Shown: positions 1 to 64,000, counted from the first letter of the stretch. The stretch is DNA of 64,000 nucleotides from Deltaproteobacteria bacterium (GCA_038150265.1 JAYOTF010000014.1:1-64000); one strand, 5' to 3'. Numbers and translations: made by a program. The notes: generated from the letters alone by a model not told the origin.

Positions 1-168
1 CACATCCGCGAGCTGCAGCGTGAGCTCAAACGCAAGGAGAAGGCGCTGGCGGAGAAGGTGGCAGAGGGTTCACGCAAGCGGGTGCTGGGAAAAAAAGCAC
101 AGGCGATCTGGGAAAAAGACAGGAGGCCCTACACCTCCGACCAGTTCACCCACTGGCTTCCGGACTGA
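1..168 (+). mobile_element. 3' end of an IS3-family transposase orfA-like sequence (partial, probably a remnant)
   Basis: Frame 1 reads HIRELQRELKRKEKALAEK...VLGKKAQAIWEKD, resembling the ELxRKEKALAE...KKAQAIW end of IS3-family OrfA. An A7G run lies at 90-97. There is no room for orfB before the convergent gene ending at 129. Confidence 0.55.
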
Positions 169-1307
169 TGCGAACGGAGCGCGGCTTCAATGAAGCGCAT
201 GCCCTCAATGCCGGCATCCAGTCCGGGAATGCTCACCGACTCCGGAACCGGCTGTCCATGCCGGTAGGCGAGCAGGGCTTCGGCAAGATCAGTGTAGAGG
301 TTGGCAAATCCCTCCAGGTAGCCTTCCGGAAGTCCGGCGGGCACGCGTGTGCCGCGGGTGGCTTTGGAAGACAACCCGGGGCCTCCCCGCGTCAGGCGCT
401 GCGGCGGCTCTCCCAACCGAGTCAGCACCAACGTGTTGGGCTCGGACTGCAGCCACTGGAGGCTCGCCTGCTCGCCATAGATCCGGAGGCGCAGGTCATT
501 TTCATGGCCGGGAGCCACCTGGCTGGCCCAGAGCATGCCCCTGGCGCCTTCCGCAAACCGCAGGAGGACGTGGACGTTGTCATCCAGCCGCCTTCCGGGA
601 ACAAACGAGCTCAGGTCTGCCAGCAGGGCCTCCGGAGTCAGGCGACTGACAAAGCAGGCCAGGTGAAAGGCGTGGGTTCCAATGTCGCCAAGGCTGCCAC
701 CGCTTCCCGCCCGCTCCGGATCCGTCCGCCACTCAGCCTGCTTGTGCCCGCTCCGTTCCAGATCGGTACTGAGCCAATCCTGCGGGTATTCCACCTGCAC
801 CACCCGGATCTTCCCCAGTGCTCCCTGCGACACCAGGTGCCGTGCCTCCTGAATGAGCGGGTACCCACTGTAATTGTAGGTCACGGCAAACAAGCGCTGC
901 TGCTGCTCCGTCAGTTCCTGCAAGCCCGTGACTTCCTTCAGGTTGGCGGCCAGTGGCTTGTCACAGATGACATGGATTCCGGCCTCCAGAAAGGTCCGGG
1001 CAACCGGGACATGCAGGTGGTTCGGAGTCACAATGACCACGGCCTCAATCCCGTCAGCCCGCTCACTTTCTGCCCGGGCCATCTCTTCGTAATGGCTGTA
1101 ACAGCGGCTCGGATCCAACCCCAGGGCCAGCCCCGAGTGCAGCGCGCGTGCAGGATCGGAACACAGGGCGCCCGCCAGGAACTCGAAACGGTCATCCATC
1201 CGTGCAGCCAGACGATGCACGGCTCCGATAAAGGCACCATCGCCTCCCCCCACCATGCCAAAGCGGACGCGAGGCTCAAAGTAGGATTTTTCAAATTCCA
1301 TCTTCAT
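129..1307 (-). CDS. Gfo/Idh/MocA family NAD(P)-dependent oxidoreductase
   Basis: [12 protein letters not shown]ossmann start, VTPNHLH, HVICDKP and GDIGTH motifs. Confidence 0.9.
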
Positions 1308-1331
1308 CTCCTTCAGGCAAGAACACAGAAA

Positions 1332-2357
1332 TCAAGCTCCGGAGGCCCGCTGCCGCAGGCGTTCCATCATGGACTGAACCCGCTCCTCCATTGACCCCAC
1401 GGAAGAGGGCGAAGCAGCTCGGGCAGGCCCGGAAGCACGACGGGGCGTGGCGCTGGACTGACGCCCAGCCAGAGACCGGGTGTGCCCACGGACCTGCTCC
1501 GGATTCAAGTGGGACTGAACCATCAGGCTGACGCGCTGGAAGGCCTGCTGCCAGGCCGGATGCTGCCCATGCAGGTGCTCCTGCAGTCCACGTGGCCCCC
1601 ACCTCCGGAACAGCGCCTCCCGCCGCTCGGCGGAAGAGACATAAACCACCAGCGTCGCCCGGTTCGGAGAAAGGCGATGGATGAACGCTGGCATGGTGCA
1701 ATGAGCCAGGTCCGGCGGCACCAGCTGCTCCCAGCGGTCTGCGAGGTCGGCTGACACTTCCTGATCATTTTGAGACTGCACGAGGTCTCCCACATGGCAG
1801 CGGATCGTGTCGATCTGCAACCCCGGCAGGTGTTCCTGCAGCAGCCTCCGGTAGGTGGCTTCCTCAAACCGAACCGCCTGGGCGATGGAGCCATCGTAGA
1901 CGGTCAGGTGCAGCACCACCTCCTTGAGGCGAAACTCGGCCTGCTGACGCAGCACCTGCTGCTCGTCATCGGTCAGGTGCCGCCCCAGTTGCTTCCTCAC
2001 GGCCCCAAAGAAGACGTCCGGACGCGGGTACGCCCGCCCGCTCAGGCTCCGGAGGCTGGCCTCCCAGGGGTCGGCTCCCAGGGCCTGCCCCACCCGCTCC
2101 AGGTACTCGGGAGTCACCGTAAACTGACGGGTCACCGAAAAGTTGCGCGGATAGGTATTTTGAGCAAGAAACGGGTCCACCCCCTGTAACCAGAGCTTGC
2201 GAAGTTGCGCCAACTGCATTAAATGCTTCTGTCCGGCTGCCTCAAAGATGCGTTGCAGCACAGACAGGGCAGACCGGGGCGCCGAAGTTTCGGGAGCCTC
2301 GTACCCAATGGCTTTCAAAAAGGCGGAGGGCGTGGTCGCCCGAGAACTCAGGGGCAT
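1332..2357 (-). CDS. Protein with two DciA/DUF721-like domains, the first interrupted by a helical insertion
   Basis: Two copies of the pattern W..xV...LA..T.P ... L.(L/V).V....: LRKLWLQGVDPFLAQNTYP..VLHLTVYDGSIAQAVRF and LADRWEQLVPPDLAHCTMP..TLVVYVSSAERREAL. Start ATG 2357 chosen; the ORF is open to 2384. Confidence 0.55.
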   Translation of the reverse strand: MPLSSRATTPSAFLKAIGYEAPETSAPRSALSVLQRIFEAAGQKHLMQLAQLRKLWLQGVDPFLAQNTYPRNFSVTRQFTVTPEYLERVGQALGADPWEASLRSLSGRAYPRPDVFFGAVRKQLGRHLTDDEQQVLRQQAEFRLKEVVLHLTVYDGSIAQAVRFEEATYRRLLQEHLPGLQIDTIRCHVGDLVQSQNDQEVSADLADRWEQLVPPDLAHCTMPAFIHRLSPNRATLVVYVSSAERREALFRRWGPRGLQEHLHGQHPAWQQAFQRVSLMVQSHLNPEQVRGHTRSLAGRQSSATPRRASGPARAASPSSVGSMEERVQSMMERLRQRASGA

Positions 2358-2393
2358 CGTTCCTCTGGATTGAGAATCAACCAAACACGTACC

Positions 2394-2939
2394 ATGAGCA
2401 CCATACCCGGGATTTTAGCAGCCATGCCCAACTTGCAGGATCCGTATTTTTCCAAAACGGTCATTCTGCTCTGCAACTACGACCAAGACGGTGCCTTCGG
2501 TTTGGTGATGAATCAACCCTCCACCCTGCAGGTGAAGGAGGTCCTGACAGATGCCTTCAAGGATCACCCGGCGTTTGAGGTGCCGCTGCTGGTGGGTGGG
2601 CCTGTGCAGCCCGAATCCTTTTGGGCGGTCCACACCAACGACTTTGAAGGCGAAAGCACCAGCCGACTGTCTCCGGGCCTCAACCTGAGTGCGGCACCGG
2701 ATGTCCTCAAGGCCCTGATCGAGGACCACGGACCGTCTCAGTACCACCTTGGCTGCGGCTACGCCGGGTGGGGGGCGAAGCAACTGGACCACGAAATCGA
2801 GGACGAGTCGTGGTGGCTCGGGCCGCTGGAGCAAGACCTCCTGTTAAGCCTCGACTACCCGGCCCGCTGGGAGACCCTGCTGCAGCGCTGGGGCATTGAC
2901 CCCCTGCAGGAAGCCATCCAGCAAAACGGCTACGTTTAG
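2394..2939 (+). CDS. yqgE: YqgE/AlgH family protein
   Basis: LAAMPNLQDPYFSKTVILLC, GAFGLVMN, GGPV and GYAGWGAKQL..EI motifs. ATG at 2394. Confidence 0.9.
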   Translation: MSTIPGILAAMPNLQDPYFSKTVILLCNYDQDGAFGLVMNQPSTLQVKEVLTDAFKDHPAFEVPLLVGGPVQPESFWAVHTNDFEGESTSRLSPGLNLSAAPDVLKALIEDHGPSQYHLGCGYAGWGAKQLDHEIEDESWWLGPLEQDLLLSLDYPARWETLLQRWGIDPLQEAIQQNGYV

Positions 2940-4255
2940 GCCTCAGGGGTCAGCAGGCGTTTGCCATACACCACCGAGTCCTGGAAGTCATAGGCCTGTC
3001 GCTTCTGCTCGGGAAGCTGATCGGCTGAGAGGGGACGCATGCCCGCCTGCACAAAGACATGGGCGCTCCCCGTTGTGAGAGAAAAGAGCAGGGTGCAGCC
3101 CCACTCCCGGGCTTGCTCGGCAGCAGCCTGCAGCAACTCCCGCCCCACGCCTCGGTTCCGGAGGGTGCTATCCACCACCAGGCTTCCCACCTCCACCGCC
3201 AGCTCTGCTTCGTAGCGAATCAGCTCACAGCACCCCATGATCTCCTCATCGAGGCAGAAGAGCAGGAAGCGGTCGATGTGCCGGTTCAGGTCTTCCGGAG
3301 TCCGGAGGACCAGGGCCGCCTGCTGCACCGGACGCTGCAGGATGCGCTGAATGGCCGGGATGTCGCTCAGGCGAGCTGGCCGCACCTGACGGTAACGGCG
3401 ATCGGTCACCATCACCCCCAGCCCGGAGGGGCGCAGCAAGTCGGCCAGCAGGCTGCCGTCCAGCGTTCCATCAATCAACTGGCAGCGGGCCACCCCACGG
3501 CGGCACCCCTGAATCAGCGCCTCATACTCGGCCTGCCGTCCGGGCTCCAGCGTCTGGAGGCTCAGCCACTGCTCCATCGCTTCTGTGGTCAGGTGCAGGC
3601 CCTCGCCCTGCATCTCAAGAGGCCGTGCCCCAATGAGGATCAGTTTGCGGCTCCGGAGCCCAGACGCCAGCGCCACCGCGGTTTCAGCTGCCGACAGCAC
3701 CCACTCGCGTCCCTTCTCCCCAAGCGCCAGCGGCGGCACAATCACCAAACGGCTCTGGTCCAGCGCCGCCCGCAACGCATTCAGGTCAATCTGCTGAACC
3801 CGTCCACAGCGGTGCGCCTCGGGAGCGTCCATGAAGTCCACCGGCTCGGCACGGATCCAGTAGCTGGTGAGCGGACGCAGCTGGGAGTGCGTCGCGGTGA
3901 AGCGGTGCAGCAGTTCCCACACCAGAGAGGCCACCAACGGACGAACCCAGGGCAGGTGCGTCTCCGCCAGCACCAACCGCTGCTCCTGCCACCTGACCGG
4001 CGCCCCGGTTCGTTCCAGCTCCGCCTGCAGCTGTGGCGTCACATCAGGAACCAGCACCAGCCGCAGCCCTGCCTGGTGGAGCAACACCACGTCCTCCAGC
4101 AGGCGTCCGGAGTCGCGGCTCAGCAGCGTTCCATCCAGGTAAAGCACCATGACCGTCTCCCGGAACCCCTCCAGGTACGGCAGGGCCGAGCGCAGGTGTC
4201 GCAGAAAGGCGGCATCATCTGATTCAGAGGAAGCGTGGGCAGCCACCGAGTCCAT
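2936..4255 (-). CDS. argA: Amino-acid N-acetyltransferase (N-acetylglutamate synthase; AAK-like plus GNAT domains)
   Basis: FLRHLRSALPYL N-terminus, CRRGVARCQLIDG..DGSLL and a C-terminal GNAT (EVGSLVV...RNRGVG). ATG at 4255. Confidence 0.8.
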   Translation of the reverse strand: MDSVAAHASSESDDAAFLRHLRSALPYLEGFRETVMVLYLDGTLLSRDSGRLLEDVVLLHQAGLRLVLVPDVTPQLQAELERTGAPVRWQEQRLVLAETHLPWVRPLVASLVWELLHRFTATHSQLRPLTSYWIRAEPVDFMDAPEAHRCGRVQQIDLNALRAALDQSRLVIVPPLALGEKGREWVLSAAETAVALASGLRSRKLILIGARPLEMQGEGLHLTTEAMEQWLSLQTLEPGRQAEYEALIQGCRRGVARCQLIDGTLDGSLLADLLRPSGLGVMVTDRRYRQVRPARLSDIPAIQRILQRPVQQAALVLRTPEDLNRHIDRFLLFCLDEEIMGCCELIRYEAELAVEVGSLVVDSTLRNRGVGRELLQAAAEQAREWGCTLLFSLTTGSAHVFVQAGMRPLSADQLPEQKRQAYDFQDSVVYGKRLLTPEA

Positions 4256-4530
4256 AGGCGTGAGGTCCCGGAGGCGCTGGGCCGGCTCCGGAGAAACGGT
4301 TGGAGGAAATGAAAAATGCTGCTGCCTCCCGGGAGCCTCCGACCTTCCGAGCAGGCGGGGCGGCTGCTTGTGGAACCAGCGCGCTCCACTATGCCCGGAA
4401 TCCGCTGCAACCGCAAGAAAAGCGGGGTGGGCTTCCGGCGGAGGGTGCAGGAAACATTGACTATTTCCCGTCTGCAATTCAGGATATTTGATATTTACCC
4501 CGTGATTTTGCTCTGCAGTCTGAACCGACC

Positions 4531-5370: not shown

Positions 5371-5386
5371 ACCACGTCGGAATCCG

Positions 5387-7570: not shown

Positions 7571-9364
7571 ATGCCGCAGCTTCCTCCTCCCCCTGGCCCC
7601 ACTCTGGATGGCGAGTTCTGGAGTCAGCTTCCGGAGGGCACCACGGCAGAAGAGCTCCAGGCTGGCCTCACCAGGAAGCTCGATCAGCTTGGCATCACCC
7701 TGCCCTACCGCCTGGCCGTCCTGAGCCTGATTCCCGGAGCCCCGCCTCCCGAGTCTCCGGAAGCCGTGCTGCACCAGGCGTCGCTCCGGACGTTGCTCAA
7801 TCGGCCCCTGCAGGCTCCAACACGAGAGAGCGGCATGGCGGCCATGAAGCTGCTCATGAATCAGGCCCGGAACACTCAGCTGCTCGCAGCCCTGCTCGCC
7901 GTCCGGCTGCAGGTCATTGAGTCGCTTCAGGACCAACCAGCCGAGGCGGTCACGCCCGCGGCTCAGAAGGCCCTGCACATCGATGCGCCCCTGGCGGCCC
8001 GGCTCGGAATCTTCTGGATCAAGGCTGAGCTGGAGGACCTCTCCTTCCGCATGCTCGACAGCGAGACCTACCGCCAGCTCAAGCGACTCGTGGGCAAGCG
8101 CCGGGACGACCGCGCCCAGCAGGTGGAGGAGCTGACCCGCGCCATCCGGGAGCTGCTGGAGCAGCATCACATGAAGCCGGAGGTGCAGGGACGCTACAAG
8201 CGGTTTTACTCCATCTTTGAAAAGCTCCCCAAGGTCGGAGGAGACTTCGACCGCATTCAGGACCTCATCGCCTTCCGCATCATCCTCCCAAGGGTTCGGG
8301 ACTGCTATGCCGCCCTGGGGTACATTCATGAACGGTGGAAGCCCAGGGAAAAGCGCTTCAAGGACTACATCAACCAACCCAAACCCAACGGGTATCAGTC
8401 GCTGCACACCACTCTGGAGGTGGCGCCAGACAGCCTGATTGAAGTCCAGATCCGGACGCACACCATGCACTCCATTGCCGAATACGGCGTGGCGGCCCAC
8501 TGGCGGTACAAGGATCAGCGACGTGGCTTGACGGAAGAGGTCAATCCGGAAGAAGGCGGAGGGTCAGAAGCCCAGCGGCAGGAGCTGGCGCTGGACTGGT
8601 ATGACGACCGGATCTTTGTTCAGACTCCGGCCCATGAGGTCATTGAGCTGCCCAGGGGAGCCACGGCTCTCGACTTTGCCTACGCCCTCCACAGCAAGAT
8701 TGGAGACACCACCGTTGGCGTCAAGCAGGATGGCGCCATTGTGAAGCTGGACACCAAGCTCCCCTCCGGATGCCAGGCGGAGGTGCTGACTTCTCCCAAG
8801 CAGGTCCCCAGCAAGGAATGGCTCGAGTTCGTGGTCACCCCTCGGGCTCGGCAGAAGATCCGGTACGCCATCCGACGTCAACAGCGGGCCCAGCTGCGAC
8901 TTCAGGGCATTGAGCAGGCGGAGAAGGCCTTTCGGCAGGCAGGCTTGAACTGGAACCGGCTCCTGAAGGAAGGGCGGCTGGAGCAGGCCTGTCAGCTCAA
9001 CCGGAACCAGAGCCTGGAGCACACCCTCTTCTGCATTGGGGAAGGCAGCGTCCGGGTCCATGAGCTGGTGGGGTGGTTTGCGGTGCAGGAAGAGGCAACG
9101 AAACCCCTGGAGCCTCCGAAGGAAGTTCGGCATGCGCCCAACACACCCGCCCGTTTCGTGGTCTCCGGTTTTGGGGACGTCGTGACGCGTGTGGCCAAGT
9201 GCTGCAACCCGCAGCCGTTTGTGCCGGTGATCGGGTACCTGGCTCAGGGCCGGGAGGTCCGGGTGCATCGCAGCGACTGCGAAGCCCTCCGGGAACTGGA
9301 GCCACAGCGGCTCGTGGAGGTCAGTTGGTCCGTTGCTGAAGACTCTCGCCCCGAGAAGAAGTAG
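7571..9364 (+). CDS. RelA/SpoT family (p)ppGpp synthetase (degenerate hydrolase region, SYNTH, TGS, zinc-finger-like domain, no ACT)
   Basis: APLAARLGI..IKAELEDL, GRYKRFYSI, DLIAFRI, RFKDYI..PKPNGYQSLHT, EVQIRT, AAHWRYK, LPRGATALDFAY and AKCCNP...HRSDC. Confidence 0.9.
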   Translation: MPQLPPPPGPTLDGEFWSQLPEGTTAEELQAGLTRKLDQLGITLPYRLAVLSLIPGAPPPESPEAVLHQASLRTLLNRPLQAPTRESGMAAMKLLMNQARNTQLLAALLAVRLQVIESLQDQPAEAVTPAAQKALHIDAPLAARLGIFWIKAELEDLSFRMLDSETYRQLKRLVGKRRDDRAQQVEELTRAIRELLEQHHMKPEVQGRYKRFYSIFEKLPKVGGDFDRIQDLIAFRIILPRVRDCYAALGYIHERWKPREKRFKDYINQPKPNGYQSLHTTLEVAPDSLIEVQIRTHTMHSIAEYGVAAHWRYKDQRRGLTEEVNPEEGGGSEAQRQELALDWYDDRIFVQTPAHEVIELPRGATALDFAYALHSKIGDTTVGVKQDGAIVKLDTKLPSGCQAEVLTSPKQVPSKEWLEFVVTPRARQKIRYAIRRQQRAQLRLQGIEQAEKAFRQAGLNWNRLLKEGRLEQACQLNRNQSLEHTLFCIGEGSVRVHELVGWFAVQEEATKPLEPPKEVRHAPNTPARFVVSGFGDVVTRVAKCCNPQPFVPVIGYLAQGREVRVHRSDCEALRELEPQRLVEVSWSVAEDSRPEKK

Positions 9365-14385: not shown

Positions 14386-15165
14386 TTACCTTCCGAAGAG
14401 TTTGGCCAACAGTCCGCGTTTTTCCTCAAAACTGGGAATCGGCAGGTCCTCCCCCATCAGGCGACGGGAGATGCGGTGGTAGGCTTGTCCGGCTGGGGAC
14501 TGCTCATTGAGAACCGCCGGAACCCCCTGGTTGCCCGAAACCACAATTTCGGAATCCTCCGGAACCACGCCCAGCAGGTGCACCGACAGGATGTCCACAA
14601 CGTCCTCCTGGCTCATCATTTCTCCGGCTTCCACCATCCGGATGGAGAGGCGGTTGACAATCAGGTCGGTGTTGACGCCATGGTGCTGCAGGAGGCCAAT
14701 GATGCGGTCGGCATCCCGGACGGCAGAGACCTCCGGAGTGGTCACCACCAGAGAGCGGTCGGCTCCGGAAATGGCATTCTTGAAGCCCTGCTCAATCCCG
14801 GCCGGACAGTCGATCATGACAAAGTCGAACTCCTGCTTCAGCTCGGCATTGAGCTTTTCCATCTCTTCCGGAGAGACGGCATTCTTGTCATCGACCTGTG
14901 AGGTGGCCAGGAGGTACAGGTTCGGGTTCCGCTTGTCTCGGATCAGCGCCTGACGCGCCGAGCACCGCCCCTTGACCACATCAACGAGGTTGTAGACGAT
15001 GCGGTTCTCCAGCCCCATGATCAGGTCCAGGTTCCGCAAGCCGATGTCGGCATCAACGGCAACCACCTTCTTCCCCGCATTGGCCAACGCGGTGCTCAGG
15101 TTGGCGGTGGTGGTGGTTTTCCCGACTCCTCCCTTTCCGGAGGTGACGACAATGGCTTCGCTCAT
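14386..15165 (-). CDS. minD: Septum site-determining ATPase MinD
   Basis: TSGKGGVGKTTT, DIGLRNLD, DCPAGIEQG and a C-terminal amphipathic GLLAKLFG. Confidence 0.97.
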   Translation of the reverse strand: MSEAIVVTSGKGGVGKTTTTANLSTALANAGKKVVAVDADIGLRNLDLIMGLENRIVYNLVDVVKGRCSARQALIRDKRNPNLYLLATSQVDDKNAVSPEEMEKLNAELKQEFDFVMIDCPAGIEQGFKNAISGADRSLVVTTPEVSAVRDADRIIGLLQHHGVNTDLIVNRLSIRMVEAGEMMSQEDVVDILSVHLLGVVPEDSEIVVSGNQGVPAVLNEQSPAGQAYHRISRRLMGEDLPIPSFEEKRGLLAKLFGR

Positions 15166-53954: not shown

Positions 53955-56111
53955 TTAAAGTAACAAACTCAGATCTTCCCCTGTCAGGACCAGCAAGGGG
54001 GCACCTGTTCCCATCACAATGCACCCCTCAAAGCCTCCTTCTGCGAGGAAGGGATGCAGGAAGGGGCGGATGACCCCCTGAGTGAACTTGAGGATGCGGT
54101 CGGCATGAAAGGCCATCTGCTGGCGTCGGGAATCCTCCAGCACCAGAATCACACCCGCCTGGGGCGCCCCAGGCGCCTGCCCCAGCCCCAGCCGGGCCTG
54201 GAGGTCGAGGTAGTGACACGCAATGCCTCGGTGCCGGAACACCCCATTTTCCGGAACCTCCGGATGCAGCGACAGGTCCACAATCTCTCGGATGACGTCG
54301 TACCGGACCGCAATGGTCCGTCCCGCCAGTTCCACCACCAGCACCTTGCGGGACTGCAACCCCAGGCGCAGTGGACAGAAGAGGGTGATCTCGGAACCCT
54401 TCCCGAGCTCCGAGGCAATGCGGACGTCGCCCCCGTGGTGCCGGATCGTGCTGGCCACCACATCCATGCCCACCCCGCGGCCGGACACATTGGTGACCTT
54501 CTCCGCCATGGAGAAACCGGGCGCCATGAGCAGCTCAAACACCTCCTCATCGGTGTACTCGGCATCAGGCTGCGCCAGCCCCCGCTCCAAGGCTTTGTTG
54601 AGGACCCGCTGGACGTCAATGCCGTTGCCGTCATCGGAGACGGTCAGGCAGAGCATTTCCGGCTCCAGACGCGCTGCGACCCGCAGGTTTCCGACGTCGG
54701 GCTTCCCCCTTTGCTTGCGGACATCCGGCGTCTCAATGCCATGGTCGAGCGAGTTCCGGATCAGGTGCACAAACGGATCGCCCAGGAGGTCAATCACCGA
54801 GCGATCCACTTCCAGGTGCTCGCCTCGCAGCTCCAGCGACACCCGCTTGCCCAGGTCCCGCTCCAGCTGCCGGAGCATCCGGGGCAGTCGATCGAACAGC
54901 TCACTCAGGCGAGACGCCCGGAGCTGCTGCAGCGACTCCTGAAGGCCGCCGAAGCGCTGCTGCACGCGTTGAACCGCCCCCCGCATTTCGAGAGACATCC
55001 GGGGGTCGAGGCTCTGGCGGGTCTCCTGCTCCAGGGCATCCAGGTGGTTCAGCTCCGTCACCACCTCTTCAGCATGACGCGTGAACTCGTTGAGGTCGTC
55101 CATGCCGATGCGGATCATCTCGCGCCGGGGCGCCTGAGCCGCATTGGCCGGAGCAGGCGCACTGGCCGGAGCAGGCGTCCGGGCGGAGCCGAGCCCGAGC
55201 ATTTCGAGCGCAAACTCACTGGCATCATGGGAGCGGACGTTGCACTTGCGCTCCAGGCCTTCCACCCAGAACTGCTTCCAGAACTGCTCCACCATGTCAG
55301 GAACCAGGCGGGCCAGGGCGCTGAGCGAGTCCCAGTCCAGCACCGGCTCAGGCGCATCCGGATAGAGGAGCCGGTCCATCTGCTGCACCAGCGGTTCATA
55401 GCGCTCAATGCCCTCCGGCGGCAACCCTGCGCCCGCGGCAATCAGCTCCTCCAGCCCAATCAGCACCTCCCGGACCCCTGGGGTGATGTCGTCTCCCTCC
55501 GGAGTCAGCACCGACTCCAGCAGAACGCTCCGGACCACCACGTCCACCTCAAGGGATTGCTTCTTGGCAAAGTAGGTTTCCAGCGTGTCCAGGGCATCCA
55601 GCACCTCCTGAGGCGGAGGCGCCGCGGCACTGCGGGCCCGTCCAGACTCTGCCTGCTCCACCAGGTTCCGGAGGCGGTTGGCCAGGGGCTCCACTTTTTC
55701 CTCGGAAGGCTCCTCCTTGTTGAGGCCCTGCAGGAAGCGGTCGAAGCGGTCATCGAGCTTCATCTCCTGCTGCCGCATCCGCTCCAGCGCATCCTGAAGC
55801 AGGTCAATGCCTTCCAGCACCCGGGTCTGCTCGCTTTCGCGCAGCGCCCGGTTCTGTCCCTTGAGCTGCTGGAGGTAGCTTTCAAAGACGTGGGCAAAGG
55901 ACTGGAGCGCCATGAGGTCAAAGAACCCGGCGGTGCCCTTGACGGTGTGGACCCAGCGGAAGATTGCGGCCAGGGTCTCAATGGGCTGCTCCTCCAGATG
56001 CTCCAGGTCTTCCTGAATCAGCTCCAGGCCGTTGAGGGATTCCTCCACAAAGGCCTGAATGATCTCGGGGTCAAAGAAGGAGTTGACTTCCGGAGTCGTC
56101 GTGTCGCTCAT
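53955..56111 (-). CDS. cheA: Chemotaxis-type histidine kinase CheA (copy 2, divergent)
   Basis: IFRWVHTVKG HPt, DPFVHLIRNSLDHGIE, DDGNGID and APGFS..VSGRGVGMDVV. Divergent dimerisation and CheW-like domains. ATG at 56111. Confidence 0.9.
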   Translation of the reverse strand: MSDTTTPEVNSFFDPEIIQAFVEESLNGLELIQEDLEHLEEQPIETLAAIFRWVHTVKGTAGFFDLMALQSFAHVFESYLQQLKGQNRALRESEQTRVLEGIDLLQDALERMRQQEMKLDDRFDRFLQGLNKEEPSEEKVEPLANRLRNLVEQAESGRARSAAAPPPQEVLDALDTLETYFAKKQSLEVDVVVRSVLLESVLTPEGDDITPGVREVLIGLEELIAAGAGLPPEGIERYEPLVQQMDRLLYPDAPEPVLDWDSLSALARLVPDMVEQFWKQFWVEGLERKCNVRSHDASEFALEMLGLGSARTPAPASAPAPANAAQAPRREMIRIGMDDLNEFTRHAEEVVTELNHLDALEQETRQSLDPRMSLEMRGAVQRVQQRFGGLQESLQQLRASRLSELFDRLPRMLRQLERDLGKRVSLELRGEHLEVDRSVIDLLGDPFVHLIRNSLDHGIETPDVRKQRGKPDVGNLRVAARLEPEMLCLTVSDDGNGIDVQRVLNKALERGLAQPDAEYTDEEVFELLMAPGFSMAEKVTNVSGRGVGMDVVASTIRHHGGDVRIASELGKGSEITLFCPLRLGLQSRKVLVVELAGRTIAVRYDVIREIVDLSLHPEVPENGVFRHRGIACHYLDLQARLGLGQAPGAPQAGVILVLEDSRRQQMAFHADRILKFTQGVIRPFLHPFLAEGGFEGCIVMGTGAPLLVLTGEDLSLLL

Positions 56112-57408: not shown

Positions 57409-58607
57409 GAGGCCTCCTTTTGCTCCAGAGCATGCACCTCCACCCCCATCAGGGTGGCATCGTCATCAAAGCGGTCCTTGCCAGCAAAGTTCAGCACCGA
57501 CTGCATGATCTTCTGGGTCATGCTGGAGAGGCTTTCATTGCGGAGGCTGAAGAGCGTCTTGCGCAAGCGGGGCTCGCCAAACAGCTCGGAGCTGCGGTTC
57601 TTGCCCCACGCCGGGTTGGTTTCCAGCAACGCGTCCGTGTAGATGAGGATCCGGTCACCCGGATTGAGCAGCACCTTGCCCTCGCCATACTGAACCACGT
57701 CGCTGGGCAACACCCCCAGCACCACGCCCTCGGTGGAGAGGCTGATGATCTCATCGTCCCCCTTGCGGATCAGGTAGGCCGGAGGGTGTCCGGCACAGGT
57801 GTAGGTCAGCTCATGGGTCTGCTCATCAAAGACCATGTAGAACAGGCTCGCGAAGCGTCCCGGAGGCATGTAGTCGTTGAGGGTGTCGTTGATGCGAGAG
57901 ATGGCCTCCTGCGTTGAGCTGTGGCTCCCTCCCACCTGCCGGAAGGTGAGGCGGAGCATCATGGCAATCATTGAGGCAGACAGTCCATGACCCGTGACAT
58001 CCGCGACCACCATCCCAATGAGGTGATCATTGAGGCGGAGGACGTCATAGAAGTCGCCGCCCACCTCATCCATCGGGATGAACTCCGCCTGAATCTGCAG
58101 GTGTTCGGAAATGTTGAGGCTGTGGGGCAGCAGCAGCTCCTGCGCCACCCGGGCCTGCTCCAGGTCGTAACGGCTTTGCTTCTGCAGGGAGATCAGGTGC
58201 TCATTCAGCATCTCCACCATCTCCAGGTGCCCATTCATGCGCCGGTTCTCCTGCAGCAGCTCGTGGTGCTTCAGAAAGACCGGAAAGAGGTGCTCCAGGA
58301 TCTGGTCCGGATGCTCCTGCAGGAAGGAAAACTGAATCAGGTTCAGGTCCTCTTGCGCCTCCTCGTCTCCAATGCAGATCGCCAGCGTCTCCGGATACTT
58401 GTCCTGAAACCGCCTCAGCTCCTCGCCACTCCGGCCAATGATGATCTCCGGAGAGGCGCCTCCGGGCTGGAGGGTGCTGAGGACCTCCTCCACTTCCTGA
58501 TACAGCTCCACCGTGAACAGGTGCCCGAGCTGCTGCTCCAGGATCAGGAACTCCGGTGTGGAGCCCACCAGCAGGATGAGGTTCGGTTTGGGAAACTGAG
58601 GACTCAT
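57405..58607 (-). CDS. SpoIIE/RsbU-type PP2C serine phosphatase with a degenerate N-terminal receiver-like region
   Basis: ARVAQELLLP, VGGDFYD, VADVTGHG, AGHPP, YTDAL and DDATL. Confidence 0.9.
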   Translation of the reverse strand: MSPQFPKPNLILLVGSTPEFLILEQQLGHLFTVELYQEVEEVLSTLQPGGASPEIIIGRSGEELRRFQDKYPETLAICIGDEEAQEDLNLIQFSFLQEHPDQILEHLFPVFLKHHELLQENRRMNGHLEMVEMLNEHLISLQKQSRYDLEQARVAQELLLPHSLNISEHLQIQAEFIPMDEVGGDFYDVLRLNDHLIGMVVADVTGHGLSASMIAMMLRLTFRQVGGSHSSTQEAISRINDTLNDYMPPGRFASLFYMVFDEQTHELTYTCAGHPPAYLIRKGDDEIISLSTEGVVLGVLPSDVVQYGEGKVLLNPGDRILIYTDALLETNPAWGKNRSSELFGEPRLRKTLFSLRNESLSSMTQKIMQSVLNFAGKDRFDDDATLMGVEVHALEQKEAS

Positions 58608-59061: not shown

Positions 59062-59089
59062 ATCATATCCGTCCAGTATTTTATTTCAA
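59062..59089 (-). promoter_or_regulatory. Sigma70-like promoter ahead of the STAS/phosphatase/che operon
   Basis: Minus strand TTGAAA-16 nt-TATGAT in an AT-rich intergenic stretch, followed by a 9-bp hairpin at 59031-59054. Confidence 0.45.
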
Positions 59090-59200
59090 GCTGATGTTTA
59101 GGAAAAATAGTGGATTATTGTTCCGGTCTCAGACCCCTTTTAAAGGTCGCCTTTTTCGCCATCAGGCTTGACATTTCAAGCGGCGCCCAACGGCTGATTT

Positions 59201-60988
59201 TCACGTTGCCTCAGAGGCTGGAAGCCAGATCCGGAAGGTGGCGCCTCGTTCGCCATCTTCATAGGCCACACCGCCCCCTTGCTCCCGCATCAGGTTGTAG
59301 GCAATGGAGAGCCCCAGCCCCGTTCCCTTTCCCAATTCCTTGGTGGTAAAAAAGGGATCAAACAGCTGTCCCTGCTGCTGTTTGGGGACCCCCGGGCCGT
59401 TGTCGGTCAGCCGCATCTCCACCTGCGCGGCTCCGGTCGTGAGGGGCTGGACGGTGACCGCGACCAGCAGGAATCGATTGGACTCCCCCTCCATGGCATC
59501 CAGCGCGTTATTCAGCAGGTTCAGCAGCACCTGTTCCGTCTGTCCCGGGTTTCCTTCCACACGCGGCAGGCCGTCAGGCCAGCTCTCCTGCACGGAAACC
59601 CCCTCATTCAGGAGCCGGTGCCGGATCAGGCTCAGTGCGTTGTTGAATGTCACCGGGAGTTCAAAAGCGGTCCGGACCTGCTCATCCATTCGCCCAAAGG
59701 TCCGGACGTGATCGATGATGGCAGCCACCCGGCTGCAGGATTCCTGCGCCTTGGCCGTGGTCTGCAGGAGCTTCTCCCGAGGGAGCACCCGCTGGCGGAT
59801 CAGTTCGAGGGAGAGGGAGATGTGAGCCAGTGGGGTGTTGATCTCATGGGCCATTCCAGTTGCCATCCGCCCCAATGAGTGCAGCTTCTCCTTGTGATAC
59901 ATTTCCTCCTGCAGGAAGGCCTCATTCCTCAGCTTCAGGGCCTTCAGGCGCGCAAACTTCCAGGAGGCGTACAGCAGCGCCAGGCCAAACAGGCAGTAGA
60001 TCCCGAACAGGGGCACAAACTCCTGCAGCACCTGCTGGGCGAACTCATCGGCATCCAGAAACGAAATGAAGTACAACTGCTGGTTGCTGAACACCACGTC
60101 ACCTCCCCGGTTAAGGGGCAGGTGGGTGGGAGAAAAACGGGTAAAACAGGCAATGCCCTCTTCATTCCTCAGGCACTGGCTCCGGAGAGTCGTCTCCTGC
60201 ATCGCCTTCCAGGTGAGCGGTTTTTGCAGACGAAGGTTCTCGGCCTTCCGGTCCGGCAAACTTCCTCCCCATTCCTGGCTCGGGGCTTCCCCCATCACGT
60301 AGTAGCCGTCCTGATCCACCACCACCGACCGGGTCTGTTCTTCAGAACGTTCCACCTCTTTCAGCGCATCCAGCAGGTCGGCCCCCAGGTAGTTGAGCAC
60401 CACAATGCTCACCGGAGCGTAAGACGAGGCCCCAGCCTTCAGCACGACCCGAAGGACTGGCTTGAGTGGGCGTTCCACCACGCCCCCCTCCACATTCAGG
60501 TCCAGCGCAGAAATGTAATACTGGTTGTGCTCCAGCCGGAGGCCTTCCTGAAAGTAGTAGCGGTCCCGTTTGCTCTGGAGTTGGCTCGGGGGCACCTTTT
60601 CCACGTCCCCCTCCCTGAAGTTGTAGCGCACCTGTTCCTGCCCAGAGGCGTCTAGCAAGCGGAACTGGTCATAGACCCCTCGGCTCTTCATGAACTCAGT
60701 CATGGTCTCATCCAGGTGGTCATGCGTTCCAAAGTCTCGGAACCCCACCTTGATGAAGCGCGCATCCGAGACCAGCAGGTCCACCTTTTCGCGCAACACC
60801 GCGGCTCCGAACACGGGGAACAGCAACTCCTCCGAATGGAGGGCGAGCGTTTTTTCGGCAACGAGCGAACGCCACGTGAGCCAGCTCAGGGTGACGATGA
60901 ACACCACCACAGCCATGAGCAGACTCACAAACAGCCTCCGGTAGCTCTCCCAACCAATGGAGTCAGAGATCAGCTTGGACGTGGGCAC
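59201..60988 (-). CDS. Membrane sensor histidine kinase with a dCache-like periplasmic domain
   Basis: YDQFRLLD..GQE.VR, K.DRYYF, YISALDLNVE..P.KPVLR, GMAHEINTPL, DNGPGV and PFFTTK..GTGLGL. Confidence 0.9.
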   Translation of the reverse strand: MPTSKLISDSIGWESYRRLFVSLLMAVVVFIVTLSWLTWRSLVAEKTLALHSEELLFPVFGAAVLREKVDLLVSDARFIKVGFRDFGTHDHLDETMTEFMKSRGVYDQFRLLDASGQEQVRYNFREGDVEKVPPSQLQSKRDRYYFQEGLRLEHNQYYISALDLNVEGGVVERPLKPVLRVVLKAGASSYAPVSIVVLNYLGADLLDALKEVERSEEQTRSVVVDQDGYYVMGEAPSQEWGGSLPDRKAENLRLQKPLTWKAMQETTLRSQCLRNEEGIACFTRFSPTHLPLNRGGDVVFSNQQLYFISFLDADEFAQQVLQEFVPLFGIYCLFGLALLYASWKFARLKALKLRNEAFLQEEMYHKEKLHSLGRMATGMAHEINTPLAHISLSLELIRQRVLPREKLLQTTAKAQESCSRVAAIIDHVRTFGRMDEQVRTAFELPVTFNNALSLIRHRLLNEGVSVQESWPDGLPRVEGNPGQTEQVLLNLLNNALDAMEGESNRFLLVAVTVQPLTTGAAQVEMRLTDNGPGVPKQQQGQLFDPFFTTKELGKGTGLGLSIAYNLMREQGGGVAYEDGERGATFRIWLPASEAT

Positions 60989-61018
60989 ACGCCTCCTGAC
61001 ACGGCGAAACTCAACGTG

Positions 61019-61408
61019 TTACGCATCCTGTTCCAGAGCCGACCGCATGGCTCCCAGCAATTTTTCCCAAGAGGCGGGCTTCCCCAGGCACCGGTACGCG
61101 CCCAATTCGCTGCACTTTTGTTCAGTGGAGGCATCCAGGTGTCCGGAGTGGACAATGATGCGACAGCGGTGCTCCTCGTGCTGCAGGGTCTTCAAAACAT
61201 CGATCCCACTCAGGTGAGGCATGTTCAGATCCAGCAAAATGAGCGCAGGCTGGTGGATTTGGAACTGCTCCAGTGCCAGCTTGCCATCTGCGGCCTCCAC
61301 GACCTGGTAGTCCTCTTCACAGAGATCGGCAAGTGACTGCCGCAGCATGTCGTTGTCTTCTGCAATCAGCAGGATGGGTTTACACACAGGCCTTTGTCTG
61401 GAATTCAT
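61019..61408 (-). CDS. Single-domain response regulator
   Basis: IAEDN, LLDLNMP, HSG and GKP. Confidence 0.88.
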   Translation of the reverse strand: MNSRQRPVCKPILLIAEDNDMLRQSLADLCEEDYQVVEAADGKLALEQFQIHQPALILLDLNMPHLSGIDVLKTLQHEEHRCRIIVHSGHLDASTEQKCSELGAYRCLGKPASWEKLLGAMRSALEQDA

Positions 61409-61950
61409 CGTTTTTTATGGGAGGGGAAGGGCGCTCACGAGCAGACACTCAGGCCGTCTTCCTCACGTCACAGGCACAATGGATAGCTGTGAACGAGGCC
61501 TTACTTGTACTGAAGTTTTATGATTTTGCCAAACCAAATTGTCATTTGCTCGGGTCCCCAATCCTTCAGAAAAGGAATAAATCAATAAATTTCAGTTTTC
61601 TTTCGCAGAAAAAGAGTTTTTGATTTTTGTCCCATCCCGCCCCAATCAAGCGCCAGTCTTCTTGGCAAATGGAGCCTCACCGCTCGGGCTTCCCCCTTGA
61701 GTAGAAGGTCGGGGCCTGGCGAAAAATTTCCAGAGTACGGCGCTTCCGGAGGGTCGTGCCACCGCCAGAAAGCGTCTCCAGACACCGTCCGGGAGCAGTG
61801 GGGAAGTGGGAAAAATTGTGGGGGGTCCTTTTCCCCAATTCAGTTGTTTGTCCCAGCATCTCCTGCTAAGATGGGCGTTCTTTCCTGCTTAGGCCCCGCG
61901 ATGCAGGAACCTCTCTCTAGATCCCTTGACTTAGACTTGCAGGAGTTTTG

Positions 61951-62580
61951 ATGAAGAAAATTGGCATTCTGTTTGTGACCTTTGCCGCCAGCGTGTTGCT
62001 GGCCAGTGCTGTTCATGCCGCTGGAGATCCGGCCAAGGGCAAGGCCCTTTATGGGGTGTGTGCCTCCTGCCACGGCGCCAACGGCGAAGGCAACCAGGCC
62101 CTCAATGCTCCGATGATTGCGGGGCAACACGAGTGGTACCTCGCCCGCCAGCTGAACAACTACAAGGCCGGCATCCGTGGAACGCATCCGGAAGACACCT
62201 ACGGCATGCAGATGCGCCCGATGTCCATGACCCTGCCCAACGAGCAGGCAGTCAATGATGTCGCCGCCTATGTGGCCTCGCTCAAGCCTGCTGCAGCCCA
62301 AACCACGATGGGTGGAAACGCTGCTGCCGGCAAGGCGCTCTATGGCGTCTGTGCCTCCTGCCACGGCCCCAACGGCGCCGGCAACCAGGCCCTCAATGCT
62401 CCGAAGATTGCCGGGCAGCACGACTGGTACACCGCTCGCCAGCTGAACCACTTCAAGAAGGGCATCCGGGGCGGCGACGCCAAGGACACCTACGGCATGC
62501 AGATGCGCCCGATGTCCATGACCCTTGCCGATGATGCCGCCGTGAACAACATGGCCGCCTACCTCGCATCCCTGAAGTAA
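61951..62580 (+). CDS. Di-heme cytochrome c (c4/c553 type)
   Basis: AGGAG RBS, signal peptide, two CASCH motifs each followed by P.IAGQ..WY..RQL and a distal Met region (MQMRPM). Confidence 0.93.
   Translation: MKKIGILFVTFAASVLLASAVHAAGDPAKGKALYGVCASCHGANGEGNQALNAPMIAGQHEWYLARQLNNYKAGIRGTHPEDTYGMQMRPMSMTLPNEQAVNDVAAYVASLKPAAAQTTMGGNAAAGKALYGVCASCHGPNGAGNQALNAPKIAGQHDWYTARQLNHFKKGIRGGDAKDTYGMQMRPMSMTLADDAAVNNMAAYLASLK
62194..62525 (+). repeat. Internal direct repeat within the cytochrome gene (period 291 nt)
   Basis: 41 nt GACACCTACGGCATGCAGATGCGCCCGATGTCCATGACCCT is identical at 62194-62234 and 62485-62525. Confidence 0.9.
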
Positions 62581-62587
62581 GCACTCC

Positions 62588-62605
62588 GGCTCCCCTCGGG
62601 GAGCC
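62588..62605 (+). terminator. Hairpin after the cytochrome c gene
   Basis: GGCTCCCC-tc-GGGGAGCC with no clear U-tract. Confidence 0.35.
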
Positions 62606-62737
62606 CTCCCCCCGGCTTCCCGCCACGACAAAATCTTGTCATTCTTGCCGGGATTCTTTAGGTTTCCTGCAGTTGCGTGCGCCTCCGACCTCCTTCGGGC
62701 GGCTCCATCGCCCTCCACCCTCAGCATCAACCTCTGC

Positions 62738-63814
62738 TTGAACCTGCAATTTTCCCTTGAAAAACGGTCCAATCCGACCCTCACCGGACGCGTCGTGGTC
62801 CTCAGCCTGGCGCTGTTGCTCTCGCTGATCATGGGAGGCCTCTTCCTCTGGGCGGTGGGCATTCCCCCGCTGGAGGCGTACGGGTTGGTGTGGGAGGAGG
62901 TGTTTGTCTCGCCGTATGGTCAGCAGGACCTGATGGTGAAGCTGACCCCGCTTCTGCTCACCGGGGTGGCCGTGGCCGTGGCCGCGCAGATGAAGCAGTG
63001 GAACATTGGGGCCGAAGGGCAGTTTCACATGGGAACCTTCGCCGTCACCTGGGTGGCCCTGAACGTGTCCGGACTGCCTCAGGGCGTGATGCTGCTGCTG
63101 ATGGGAGGGGCTGCCGTGCTGGGAGGGGGCCTGTGGGGCGCCATTCCGGGGTGGCTCAAGGCGCGCCTGGGGGTCAATGAGATCATCACCTCCCTCTTGC
63201 TCAACTACGTGGCGGCGGCCTGGATCGATTACCTGCTCTTTGGAGAGTGGAAGGATCCGGGAAGCAACAACTTCCCCATCACGCCCCCCTTTGCCGAAAG
63301 CGCGCGCCTGCCCCTGCTCGGCCCAACCAACGTGCACGCCGGACTGCTGGTGGCGCTGGTGGTGATGCTGGTGGTGGCATGGGTGATCCAGAAGACGCGG
63401 CTGGGCTTTCAGATCCGCCTGGCCGGCGACAACCTGGAGGCGGCCCGGTACTCCGGACTCTCCACCCAGCGGTTGGTGCTGTTCGTGTTTGTCGTCAGTG
63501 GCGCCATTGCCGGGCTGGCAGGCTTCAGTGAGGTGGCCGGCATCCATTACCGGCTTCAGCAGGACATCTCCATCGGGTACGGCTACACGGGCATCATTGT
63601 CGCGTGGCTGGCCCGGAACCACCCCATCGGCGCCCTCCTCAGCGCCCTCTTCCTGGCCAGTATCTTTGTGAGCGCCGAGGTGCTCCAGATCGACTACGGC
63701 CTCCCGGTTTCCATGGTCTACCTCTACCAGGGCGTGATCCTCTTCACGGTGCTGGGGTCTGAAATCTTCACCGAGTACCGCCTGCGACTCAGGCGCCTCG
63801 CTTCCACCGTCTAG
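62738..63814 (+). CDS. ABC transporter permease (nucleoside/simple-sugar type)
   Basis: TPLLLTG, WNIGAEGQF, VNEIITSLLLNY, KTRLGFQIR..G.N.EAARYSG and GYGYTGI. Start uncertain. Confidence 0.88.
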   Translation: MNLQFSLEKRSNPTLTGRVVVLSLALLLSLIMGGLFLWAVGIPPLEAYGLVWEEVFVSPYGQQDLMVKLTPLLLTGVAVAVAAQMKQWNIGAEGQFHMGTFAVTWVALNVSGLPQGVMLLLMGGAAVLGGGLWGAIPGWLKARLGVNEIITSLLLNYVAAAWIDYLLFGEWKDPGSNNFPITPPFAESARLPLLGPTNVHAGLLVALVVMLVVAWVIQKTRLGFQIRLAGDNLEAARYSGLSTQRLVLFVFVVSGAIAGLAGFSEVAGIHYRLQQDISIGYGYTGIIVAWLARNHPIGALLSALFLASIFVSAEVLQIDYGLPVSMVYLYQGVILFTVLGSEIFTEYRLRLRRLASTV

Positions 63815-63821
63815 CTGCCCC

Positions 63822-64000
63822 ATGGAGTTCTTCATCCAACTGCTGGTTGCCACCATTGAAATGGGCACCCCGTTGCTGTTTGCCGCACTCGGTGGCGTGC
63901 TCAGCGAACGGGCTGGGGTCATCAACCTCGGCATGGAAGGGCTGATGCTCGTTGGAGCCCTGCTGGCATTTGTCGTGAAGCTCCACACGGGCTCCTTTGC
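63822..64000 (+). CDS. Second ABC permease subunit (partial, runs off the window)
   Basis: MEFFIQLLVATIEMGTPLLFAALGGVLSERAGVINLGMEGLML. Confidence 0.85.
   Translation, partial: MEFFIQLLVATIEMGTPLLFAALGGVLSERAGVINLGMEGLMLVGALLAFVVKLHTGSF

Follow-up and report, generated by a model that had tools for sequence, protein, structure and literature searches.

No agreed function has emerged for the highly iterated palindromes (HIPs) of cyanobacteria in the three decades since their discovery. Other short words are read at many sites in bacterial genomes: in Escherichia coli, SeqA binds same-face pairs of hemimethylated GATC and forms filaments, and to our knowledge GATC is not over-represented there. 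Genome periodicities of ~10–11 bp are explained by A-tract and AA/TT phasing or by nucleosome or archaeal-histone positioning. The DNA uptake sequences (DUS) of Neisseria and the uptake signal sequences (USS) of Pasteurellaceae are non-palindromic 9–12-mers; their abundance is ascribed to drive rather than to per-site function, and we know of no helical register for them. As regards the HIPs, the part of Elhai (2015, PMC4390886) available to us gives a density of ~1 per kb and names a co-occurring cognate methylase as the main correlate of abundance, while the part of Xu, Lawrence and Durand (2018, PMC5861425) available to us reports that instances of HIP1 are conserved beyond codon conservation and show a periodicity of 18–94 kb. 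The present analysis concerns the hexamer TCCGGA in a 64,000-bp stretch of DNA (the window, JAYOTF010000014.1:1-64000) from the Deltaproteobacteria assembly GCA_038150265.1, for which a HIP-like genome signature had been proposed from the sequence alone (the original prediction). Neither an over-representation of TCCGGA nor a methylase for it nor a helical phasing of abundant palindromes came up in literature searches, the marine metaepigenome supplements, a possible source of a relative's methylated motif, lying outside their scope. In the same partial texts, TCCGGA is unmentioned by Elhai (2015, PMC4390886), and the terms 'helical' and 'same face' are absent from the Xu paper (PMC5861425).

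The genome holding the window (G000; the window is its contig C14:1-64000) is a 97.8% complete assembly of 3,393,712 bp in 87 contigs, the largest of 214 kb, with a G + C content of 61.3%. The relatives were the 88 species genomes of the phylum in the collection, labelled G for genome, g for genus and f for family; G000, G001 and G002 represent genus g1, G013 represents g12, and G018 (G + C content 43%) represents g11. Genes were predicted with a simple iterative codon-usage open reading frame caller, which gave 2,565 genes covering 85% of G000. The analysis showed that this uncultured lineage has a genuine highly iterated palindrome in TCCGGA. With 9,711 copies (2.86 per kb), it is the top hexamer of G000 both by count and by the observed-to-expected ratio (O/E), and the genome-wide comparison with Markov nulls gave O/E values of 8.67 at order 0, 7.57 at order 1, 3.95 at order 2, 2.39 at order 3 and 1.22 at order 4.

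The last value, which corrects for pentamer frequencies, is nominally near 1, and on this single point the outcome goes against the original prediction. We do not accept it as a refutation because the null is circular: 54% of all CCGGA pentamers sit within TCCGGA (NCCGGA counts on both strands: T 19,422, C 8,006, G 4,977 and A 3,630), so that the pentamer excess is the hexamer's own shadow. Coupling between the two flanks persists (odds ratio 2.04), and each one-off variant of TCCGGA is 2.4 to 27 times rarer in G000 than TCCGGA itself, which means that all six positions matter. The preferred octamer, TTCCGGAA, occurs at 1,129 sites with an order-0 O/E of 26.9. The flanks of the 9,711 sites show a mild extended preference TCCGGA-R-S-C, mirrored upstream (position +1, A 0.32 and G 0.30; +2, G 0.39 and C 0.32; +3, C 0.41).

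Codon usage was controlled by shuffling synonymous codons within each gene, which preserves the protein and the gene's codon usage. The genes hold 8,479 copies of TCCGGA against 2,017 ± 43 in the shuffles (O/E 4.2, z = 149), and 12 other words treated in the same manner gave O/E values of 0.64–1.64, except TTCCGGAA at 5.73. The excess is not confined to one reading frame: the phase TCC|GGA holds 1,983 sites (O/E 3.94), the phase xTC|CGG|Axx 2,315 sites (O/E 3.28) and the phase xxT|CCG|GAx 4,181 sites (O/E 5.18). Considering the 20,457 positions at which the protein would allow TCCGGA by codon choice alone, the word is realised at 8,479 (41%), or 34%, 38% and 49% by phase. Likewise, 808 spacers of 40–300 bp (103.8 kb, G + C content 55%) contain 224 copies against 26.9 ± 4.9 in within-spacer shuffles (O/E 7.8); AGGCCT occurs 42 times in the same spacers. 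The excess over synonymous shuffles together with that in spacers shows that the enrichment is a property of the DNA and not of codon usage or protein composition. The claim thus withstood both the codon-usage and the reading-frame controls to which the original prediction had tied it. A separate feature of the genome is its extreme avoidance of TA-containing words (TATATA 10, ACTAGT 12, CATATG 15, TCTAGA 27 and CCTAGG 38 copies), and the codons ATA, CTA and TTA account for 0.00–0.01 of the usage of their amino acids.

For the relatives, TCCGGA was compared with the mirror word AGGCCT, which has the same composition and occurs 1,639 times in the whole of G000. The TCCGGA/AGGCCT ratio is 3.9–5.9 in g1, 14–30 in g12, 3.0–8.4 in g4, 4.5–4.7 in g6, 3.8 in g3, 2.6 in g10 and 1.8–2.5 in g7. 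Within g11 it is 3.9–32 in 15 of 18 genomes and 1.6 in the remaining three, which are 51–57% complete. Ratios of 0.9–1.4 were found in g9, g8 and g5, of 0.8–1.2 in the nine genomes of g2, and of 0.13–2.0 in the 19 genomes of family f2. Family f7 is divided, with 2.4–8.2 in 11 genomes and 0.01–0.14 (e.g., 31 copies against 1,584) in six. Depending on the branch of this one phylum, the same word thus ranges from strongly favoured through neutral to strongly avoided. The strong avoiders are G081 and G083–G087 in f7 and G029, G027 and G032 in f2, with counts such as 31 against 1,584 and 15 against 1,435 for the mirror word. A full-length C5 methylase is present in five of the six f7 avoiders, and this, together with the avoidance, makes it probable that a restriction system specific for TCCGGA is in circulation within the phylum. 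TCCGGA does not behave as an avoided restriction–modification target in G000 itself, where it is enriched 8.7-fold; depletion is confined to other lineages.

These results bear on the alternative that the excess is an ordinary compositional or codon-usage artefact. Its supports are the pentamer-corrected O/E and the fact that GGAA/TTCC and CGGA/TCCG are somewhat enriched too. It is refuted by the codon shuffle, by the spacers, by the ratio of about 1 in the nine genomes of the sister genus g2, and by the helical phasing of the sites with its permutation tests described below, and we give it next to no credence.

Within the window, TCCGGA occurs 158 times between positions 1 and 64,000 (2.47 per kb), in 45 of the 48 called genes and in the spacers, with three genes containing none. 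One hundred dinucleotide-preserving shuffles gave 23.96 ± 5.15 copies, the largest value being 40, and none reached 158. At order 0, 21.1 sites (0.33 per kb) would be expected, close to the ~0.3 per kb estimated beforehand, and the G + C content is 61.2% rather than the ~63% assumed for that estimate. All 17 site coordinates given in the original prediction are correct: the 11 in the first 2.1 kb are exactly the sites found there, and the six assigned to minD are exactly those between 14386 and 15165. The former make up a cluster of 1.9 kb (159..2053) within two minus-strand genes, 129-1307 and 1332-2384, which hold six and five sites (5.1 and 4.7 per kb). The minD gene (14386..15165, minus strand) is an open reading frame of 259 residues adjoined by minC, and its identity is supported by TIGR01968 at 381 bits against a cut-off of 212.9. 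Its six sites (7.7 per kb) lie in codon phases 2, 1, 2, 0, 2 and 0, as derived from their coordinates, and all three phases are represented as had been claimed.

The origin of the sites was analysed by comparison with G002, whose contig C13 is collinear with the window at 81–85% identity. The orthologue set comprised 311 pairs from 396 kb of G002, with 342,408 aligned nucleotides, 82.4% identity overall and 61% at third codon positions. G001 was considered as an outgroup for polarising gains and losses and was dropped, its identity being 75–77% and its synteny fragmented. In the alignments, 433 sites are shared, 568 are found only in G000 and 333 only in G002, which indicates that turnover is fast and that the net gain is larger on the G000 side. 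For 314 of the 568 G000-only sites, the aligned hexamer in G002 is a one-off variant, most commonly CCCGGA/TCCGGG (92), TCCAGA/TCTGGA (52) and TCCGCA/TGCGGA (50), so TCCGGA is made by point substitution. An amino-acid difference accompanies 233 of the G000-only sites (41%), compared with 34% of all differing hexamers.

The original prediction had proposed examining gain and loss at synonymous positions in related genomes, and this comparison came out in its favour. Where the amino acid is unchanged, a codon within the motif is retained more often than the same codon elsewhere; this applies to 18 of 19 codon classes when G000 serves as the reference (ATT was tied) and to all 16 when G002 does. 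The retention inside and outside the motif is 0.90 and 0.56 for GTC, 0.89 and 0.38 for CGT, 0.56 and 0.30 for CTT, 0.70 and 0.59 for CGG, 0.63 and 0.52 for CCG, and 0.57 and 0.47 for GGA. This codon-matched excess shows that some force retains TCCGGA.

The second main result is that the sites keep a helical register. In the histogram of distances between all pairs of sites in G000, where a uniform distribution would give 27.8 pairs per bin, troughs occur at 11–17 bp (3–12 pairs) and at 46 bp (13 pairs), and peaks of 42–65 pairs at 31, 41–42, 51–52, 63, 72, 84, 93 and 114 bp and on to 168 bp. The spectrum of pair distances between 20 and 200 bp has its peak at 10.5 bp, with a power of 52.7 times the Poisson variance (56.2 for the codon period of 3), while seven control words reached 0.7–4.6 at 10–11.5 bp, the half-site words CCGGAG and CCGGAA among them with 3.4 and 2.2. 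The best period is 10.48 bp, with a relative amplitude of 0.27 up to 102 bp, 0.14–0.17 up to 186 bp and at most 0.1 beyond, so the register extends over ~18 turns or ~190 bp. The pairs at 41, 42 and 63 bp fall at unrelated unique loci, hence the phasing does not come from a repeat family.

The phasing was also analysed relative to the positions that the protein allows. The realised fraction of such positions is 0.07–0.18 at 11–15 bp and 0.16 at 46 bp from another realised site, against 0.55–0.63 at 41–42, 51–52 and 63 bp, and this signal has a power of 26.4 at 10.5 bp. When the realised status was permuted 300 times within gene and codon phase, the power at 9.5–11.5 bp reached a maximum of 15.0 and a mean of 5.4, compared with 46.3 observed. 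Conditioning on the allowed positions and the permutations together show that the phasing is not a shadow of protein periodicity. A weak periodicity is seen in the protein-possible sites themselves (power 17.4), suggesting that amino-acid choice, too, has been drawn into the phasing. Moreover, the sites private to G000 keep the phase of the older ones that it has in common with G002 (phase 13 degrees, with a Rayleigh power of 8.07 over 129 pairs), which indicates that the register rule acts on current turnover.

The register was analysed in sequence samples of ~340–400 kb from G001, G002, G013 and G018 and recurred in the last three. G002 gave a power of 11.3 at 10.4–10.5 bp with a phase of ~0 degrees, and G018, from g11, a power of 11.4 with a phase of −4 degrees; G013, from g12, gave a power of 14.5 with a phase of −175 degrees. 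Whole-genome pair counts at four turns (41–42 bp) and at four and a half turns (46–47 bp) were then compared. They are 99 and 32 in G000 (55.6 expected each), 47 and 25 in G002 (34.1 expected), 400 and 96 in the 18 genomes of g11 (141 expected), 40 and 13 in the three genomes of g4 (17 expected), and 46 and 24 in the 11 enriched genomes of f7 (~34 expected). In the three genomes of g12 they are 14 and 78, with 71 expected, so the half-turn pairs are at expectation and the same-face pairs alone are depleted. Same-face pairs are thus favoured in g11, in g4 and, within g1, in G000 and G002; they are avoided in g12 and weakly in G001.

Single pairs from the window illustrate these spacings. Two sites at 2017..2053 lie three helical turns apart, 31 bp from centre to centre, at the distance of a genome-wide peak, and a second pair at 31 bp is found at 55498..55534. 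Sites eight turns (84 bp) apart occur at 241..330, 631-720 and 58306-58395, the genome having 50 pairs at this distance against 27.8 expected, and a pair nine turns (94 bp) apart is located at 8451..8550.

The depletion of same-face pairs in g12 (14 against 71 expected, with half-turn pairs at expectation), like the strong avoidance of TCCGGA in other lineages of the phylum, would suit a two-site TCCGGA endonuclease of type IIE/IIF-like action, or another defence enzyme, that shapes the spacing of sites whose abundance has some other cause. Such an enzyme explains neither the 8-fold excess nor the same-face attraction in g1, g11 and g4. Neither the Bse634I nor the NgoMIV family was matched when G000 was searched with Pfam, and this result is uninformative as the controls were silent too. 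We regard this explanation as highly improbable.

The requirement for all six positions, the perfect dyad and the helix-dependent spacing together make a symmetric DNA-binding protein the most likely cause, and the phasing favours a reader engaging several sites together over a repair bias. Mutation or repair bias would hardly produce a helical rule that is specific to the full dyad and changes sign between genera, whereas such a rule is natural for a symmetric protein whose bound copies interact. We propose, with about an even chance of being right, that the cause is a putative two-fold symmetric TCCGGA-binding protein acting in helically registered arrays. Such a protein would be abundant and sequence-specific, and its bound copies would interact along the DNA as a filament, an array or a wrapped surface. 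Weak selection that acts on the sites collectively, and not one by one, could then fill the genome with TCCGGA and set its phase, and the outcome would be a chromosome-architecture signal and not a by-product of methylation or repair.

Several observations weigh against this reading, in addition to the pentamer-corrected O/E of 1.22. No reader protein was found in G000, where Pfam searches for the histone fold, SeqA and MutH gave no match. At a large scale the sites are near-Poisson (coefficient of variation of the gaps 0.98; counts per 5 kb with mean 14.5 and variance 16.6, none below 3 sites), with no regular long-range spacing in the gap and 5-kb statistics of the 87 contigs, and the phasing is a genome-scale property, the 72 pairs of the window showing no detectable phasing by themselves (Rayleigh power 0.85). 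Whole-site conservation is modest, 433 of 1,001 G000 sites being shared with G002 (43%) against a hexamer mean of 33%, and the conservation rank of TCCGGA is mid-table in each phase (371/907, 192/945 and 271/917). With no usable outgroup, selection and a biased-conversion drive are not separable from the pairwise data. The A/T content around the sites carries a weak 10–11 bp signal (power 8–12 against 931 for period 3), unlike that of histone-like wrapping. Within g1 itself, G001 showed no peak in 400 kb (power 0.3–3.1), and its same-face pairs are depleted (17 at 41–42 bp and 33 at 46–47 bp, 38.2 expected each). Finally, the opposite rule in g12 needs the added assumption of a changed oligomer geometry.

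Part of this evidence could also be read in terms of intrinsic DNA mechanics without a dedicated reader, a bendable or kinked TCCGGA being placed in or out of phase by selection on curvature, supercoiling or compaction. The period of 10.48 bp matches B-DNA in solution, phasing of either sign is seen, and the profile searches of G000 revealed no reader; against this, all six positions are required and the perfect dyad alone is phased (3.4 for CCGGAG and 2.2 for CCGGAA), which looks like recognition by a protein dimer, and the mirror word AGGCCT is not enriched (1,639 against 9,711). The A/T content that is barely phased argues against nucleosome-like wrapping and, combined with the full-dyad requirement, against a purely mechanical cause, which we consider quite unlikely.

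The original prediction had attributed the signature to a process driven by methylation or repair and had suggested looking for a TCCGGA/CCGG methyltransferase elsewhere in the genome. TCCGGA is a classic type II recognition site, and in this explanation, modelled on Elhai's account of HIPs and on Dcm/Vsr of E. coli, a methylase marks TCCGGA or CCGG and a repair process or selection for strand discrimination adds sites. Six-frame Pfam searches of the 97.8%-complete G000 revealed no C5 methyltransferase (PF00145), Vsr, type I/IIG N6 methylase (PF02384), MutH or SeqA. A full-length C5 methylase is present in none of three genomes in g1 and none of three in g12, and g11 has fragments alone, in 3 of 18 genomes. 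The one-off deamination products TCTGGA/TCCAGA are not depleted in G000 (order-0 O/E 2.57). On these grounds, and on the distribution of the amino-methylase genes given below, the explanation by methylation or repair is rated low.

The search did reveal two amino-methylase genes in G000, neither of which tracks enrichment. Of the 29 genes with the motif [SDN]PP[YFWH], the 14 that were scanned proved to be RlmL, RsmD, PrmC and unrelated enzymes. The first amino-methylase is linked to a retron and was rejected as the cognate enzyme, being full-length, among 41 relatives, in G000 and G001 only. Its locus on contig C45 (L001:35-3159) encodes a retron-type reverse transcriptase (NF038233, 200 bits, below the cut-off of 235), a beta-class SPPY methyltransferase of 258 residues and an open reading frame of 311 residues without a family match; it is possible that the locus is a defence module.

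The second gene, here called MTase2, lies in G000 on contig C51:1-1387 and runs off the start of the contig. In G002 (L005:451-2643) it encodes 730 residues with an N-terminal tail of ~300 residues composed of charged EDRPRR-type repeats, and such repeats probably broke the G000 assembly at the start of C51. The tail before motif I measures 336–401 residues in g1, 210–258 in g12, ~175 in g11, 92 in g2 and 72 in g5, and is longest in the TCCGGA-rich genera; some f2 genomes also have long open frames at this place. The family is an ordinary N4/N6-type DNA methylase (PF01555/UPF0020), with motif I DPFMGGGT and motif IV TSPPY in G000, and it is the sole locus matched by a PF01555-type query in g11, g12 and g2. 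MTase2 is an orphan: its neighbours in the TCCGGA-avoiding G029 are housekeeping genes (ParA-like, UPF0093, CDP-alcohol phosphatidyltransferase and Mrp-like), and a part in a restriction system was rejected for that genome as there is no nuclease among them.

MTase2 was found in 51 of 88 genomes (G000, 32 of 44 in f1, 18 of 19 in f2, none of 19 in f7 and none of five in f3–f6), a pattern of vertical inheritance through the order. It is present in the non-enriched g2, g5, g9 and f2 and was not found in the enriched f7, g7 and g10. Its presence therefore does not explain the enrichment, and as a simple presence/absence correlate it was rejected on its distribution over the 88 genomes. The catalytic motif was compared in 24 of the 51 genes, a sample chosen by the author to cover the genera and whose members are not independent because of kinship, with genomes counted as enriched at a TCCGGA/AGGCCT ratio of at least 3. 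All ten non-enriched genomes (three of g2, one each of g9 and g5, five of f2) have the tetrapeptide SPPY. Among the 14 enriched genomes, SPPY is kept in four (the three of g1 and G012), SPPF is found in two of g11, and eight have non-canonical forms: CPPY, NPPY and RPPY in g12, RPPL and RPPF in g4, APPA in g3, and NPPM and HPPL in g6. The serine codon AGT is replaced in the three g12 species by TGT, AAT and CGT (Cys, Asn and Arg), in proteins that differ in 47 of 398 columns, eight of them with three states, at a ratio of nonsynonymous to synonymous substitution (dN/dS) of 0.06–0.08. The gene tree places the degenerate forms in at least three separate positions: g3 with g6 beside the SPPY-bearing g9; g4; and g12 beside g1. 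Residues separating the enriched from the non-enriched proteins, such as the FTPKQW stretch, were sought and rejected as they fail in g4 and G007. In g11, the MTase2-matched region has one in-frame TGA in G052, G044, G045, G056 and G058 and a TAA in G050; these could be pseudogenes, recoding or assembly errors.

The link between MTase2 and TCCGGA is therefore a statistical one, because the catalytic motif decays in TCCGGA-rich lineages only. As a lead and not yet a result, these sequences suggest that catalysis may have been given up repeatedly, in such lineages only, with the protein kept. MTase2 itself could be the reader, but two results speak against this: the phasing is strongest in the g11 genomes that lack a match to it (101 pairs against 5, compared with 299 against 91; Fisher p = 3e-6), these genomes being 51–87% complete, so that absence is not proven, and f7 is enriched and weakly phased without it. 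MTase2 is thus probably not the reader. A better fit would be an enzyme that methylates TCCGGA or an overlapping word and that became dispensable or harmful once another reader had taken the word over. Three g11 genomes (G047, G054 and G055) have a ratio of 1.6 and no MTase2 match; they are 51–57% complete, so neither point is secure, and if real they would offer a natural contrast within one genus.

In favour of a methylation-linked drive, there remain the orphan, order-wide MTase2 with motifs I and IV in G000, its position as the only PF01555-type locus in g11, g12 and g2, the unusual way in which its motif and presence co-vary with enrichment, and the C5 methylase in five of the six f7 genomes that avoid TCCGGA. 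Against it, C5 methylase, Vsr and MutH are all missing from G000, a full-length C5 enzyme is lacking in the most enriched genera, TCTGGA/TCCAGA is not depleted, and MTase2 keeps its catalytic motif in all 10 non-enriched genomes compared, has a degenerate one in 8 of the 14 enriched genomes and was not found in the enriched f7 (0 of 19). In addition, the phasing is strongest where MTase2 has no match in g11, and a repair bias alone predicts no 10.5-bp register. The process first suggested for the signature was thus not borne out by these data, and we consider it unlikely.

The current reading of HIP1, a self-recognition signal for natural transformation, was weighed as well; biased uptake or recombination would then spread TCCGGA. 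According to the abstract of a preprint (10.1101/2024.09.10.611283), HIP1 raises transformation efficiency in a methylation-dependent manner. G000 has a ComEC-type gene, and the high turnover and weak per-site conservation fit a molecular drive. ComEC occurs throughout the family, in 12 of 12 genera irrespective of enrichment and in 19 of 19 high-quality genomes, so it shows no correlation with enrichment and competence does not discriminate. Moreover, known uptake sequences are longer and non-palindromic, and an uptake bias predicts neither the helical register nor its reversal in g12. We consider this explanation very unlikely.

If a symmetric reader is assumed, the findings on MTase2 can be joined to it in a wider and tentative proposal. 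TCCGGA may be the anchor of a helically registered 'chromatin code', whose reader would polymerise or dock with one contact per turn under selection on the ensemble of sites, with a register flipped between genera. Methylation by MTase2 would clash with the reader, and the enzyme would have been repeatedly inactivated by tetrapeptide substitutions or lost, the rest of the protein staying under purifying selection.

As far as the literature searches show, two features are new: a helical register of lineage-dependent sign, replicated in relatives, and the repeated independent decay of the catalytic motif of an orphan methyltransferase, in word-rich lineages only. The former implies a physical interaction between bound copies. 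These features make the puzzle of HIP function testable, and the phylum offers natural contrasts between enriched, neutral and strongly avoiding lineages and between in-phase and anti-phase ones. If a helical register proved general for highly iterated palindromes, it would give a testable structural answer to the 30-year-old HIP1 puzzle. In practice, a word of this density distorts codon usage, amino-acid choice and the k-mer based binning of these metagenome-assembled genomes.

Compared with known systems, TCCGGA resembles DUS and USS as a short word with one to a few copies per kb that lies inside genes and has a high turnover, and it differs from them in being a 6-bp dyad and in that the presence of ComEC does not track enrichment. 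With the genome periodicities of 10–11 bp it shares a period equal to the helical repeat and a reading as DNA bending or wrapping. It differs in that a single 6-bp dyad is phased with an amplitude of ~0.27 instead of a weak dinucleotide bias, in that the flanking A/T is barely phased, and, as regards histone positioning, in that a profile search found no histone-fold gene in G000. The system of GATC, Dam and SeqA in E. coli is similar in its short palindrome read at many sites, its same-face register, seen here in g1, g11 and g4, and its orphan methyltransferase. Unlike in E. coli, no SeqA or MutH homologue was found in profile searches of G000, and methylation seems dispensable here, the catalytic motif being lost in many enriched lineages (g12, g4, g3 and g6).

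The closest likeness is to HIP1 and the alternate HIPs of cyanobacteria. As far as the available parts of the two papers go (PMC4390886, PMC5861425), TCCGGA differs in being a hexamer and not an octamer, in belonging to another phylum, in its higher density (2.9 against ~1 per kb), in its 10.5-bp register, the periodicity reported for HIP1 being of 18–94 kb, and in that the searches gave no cognate methylase alongside it, the main correlate of Elhai. On the same partial texts, it agrees with HIP1 (GCGATCGC) and the alternate HIPs in being a GC-rich palindrome far more abundant than nulls that allow for composition and codons predict, in lying both within genes and in spacers, in its restriction to certain lineages with exceptions among relatives, and in its conservation beyond codon-matched expectation. 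The HIP-like signature originally proposed is thus upheld by the hyper-abundance of the word, its presence in all phases and in spacers, its origin by point substitution, its restriction to certain lineages and its retention beyond codon-matched controls. Four features of HIPs recur in TCCGGA, namely the excess over nulls, the occurrence in all phases and in non-coding DNA, the spread by substitution and the codon-controlled conservation, and TCCGGA is a real and very dense palindrome of the HIP type, in a new phylum and with a different word.

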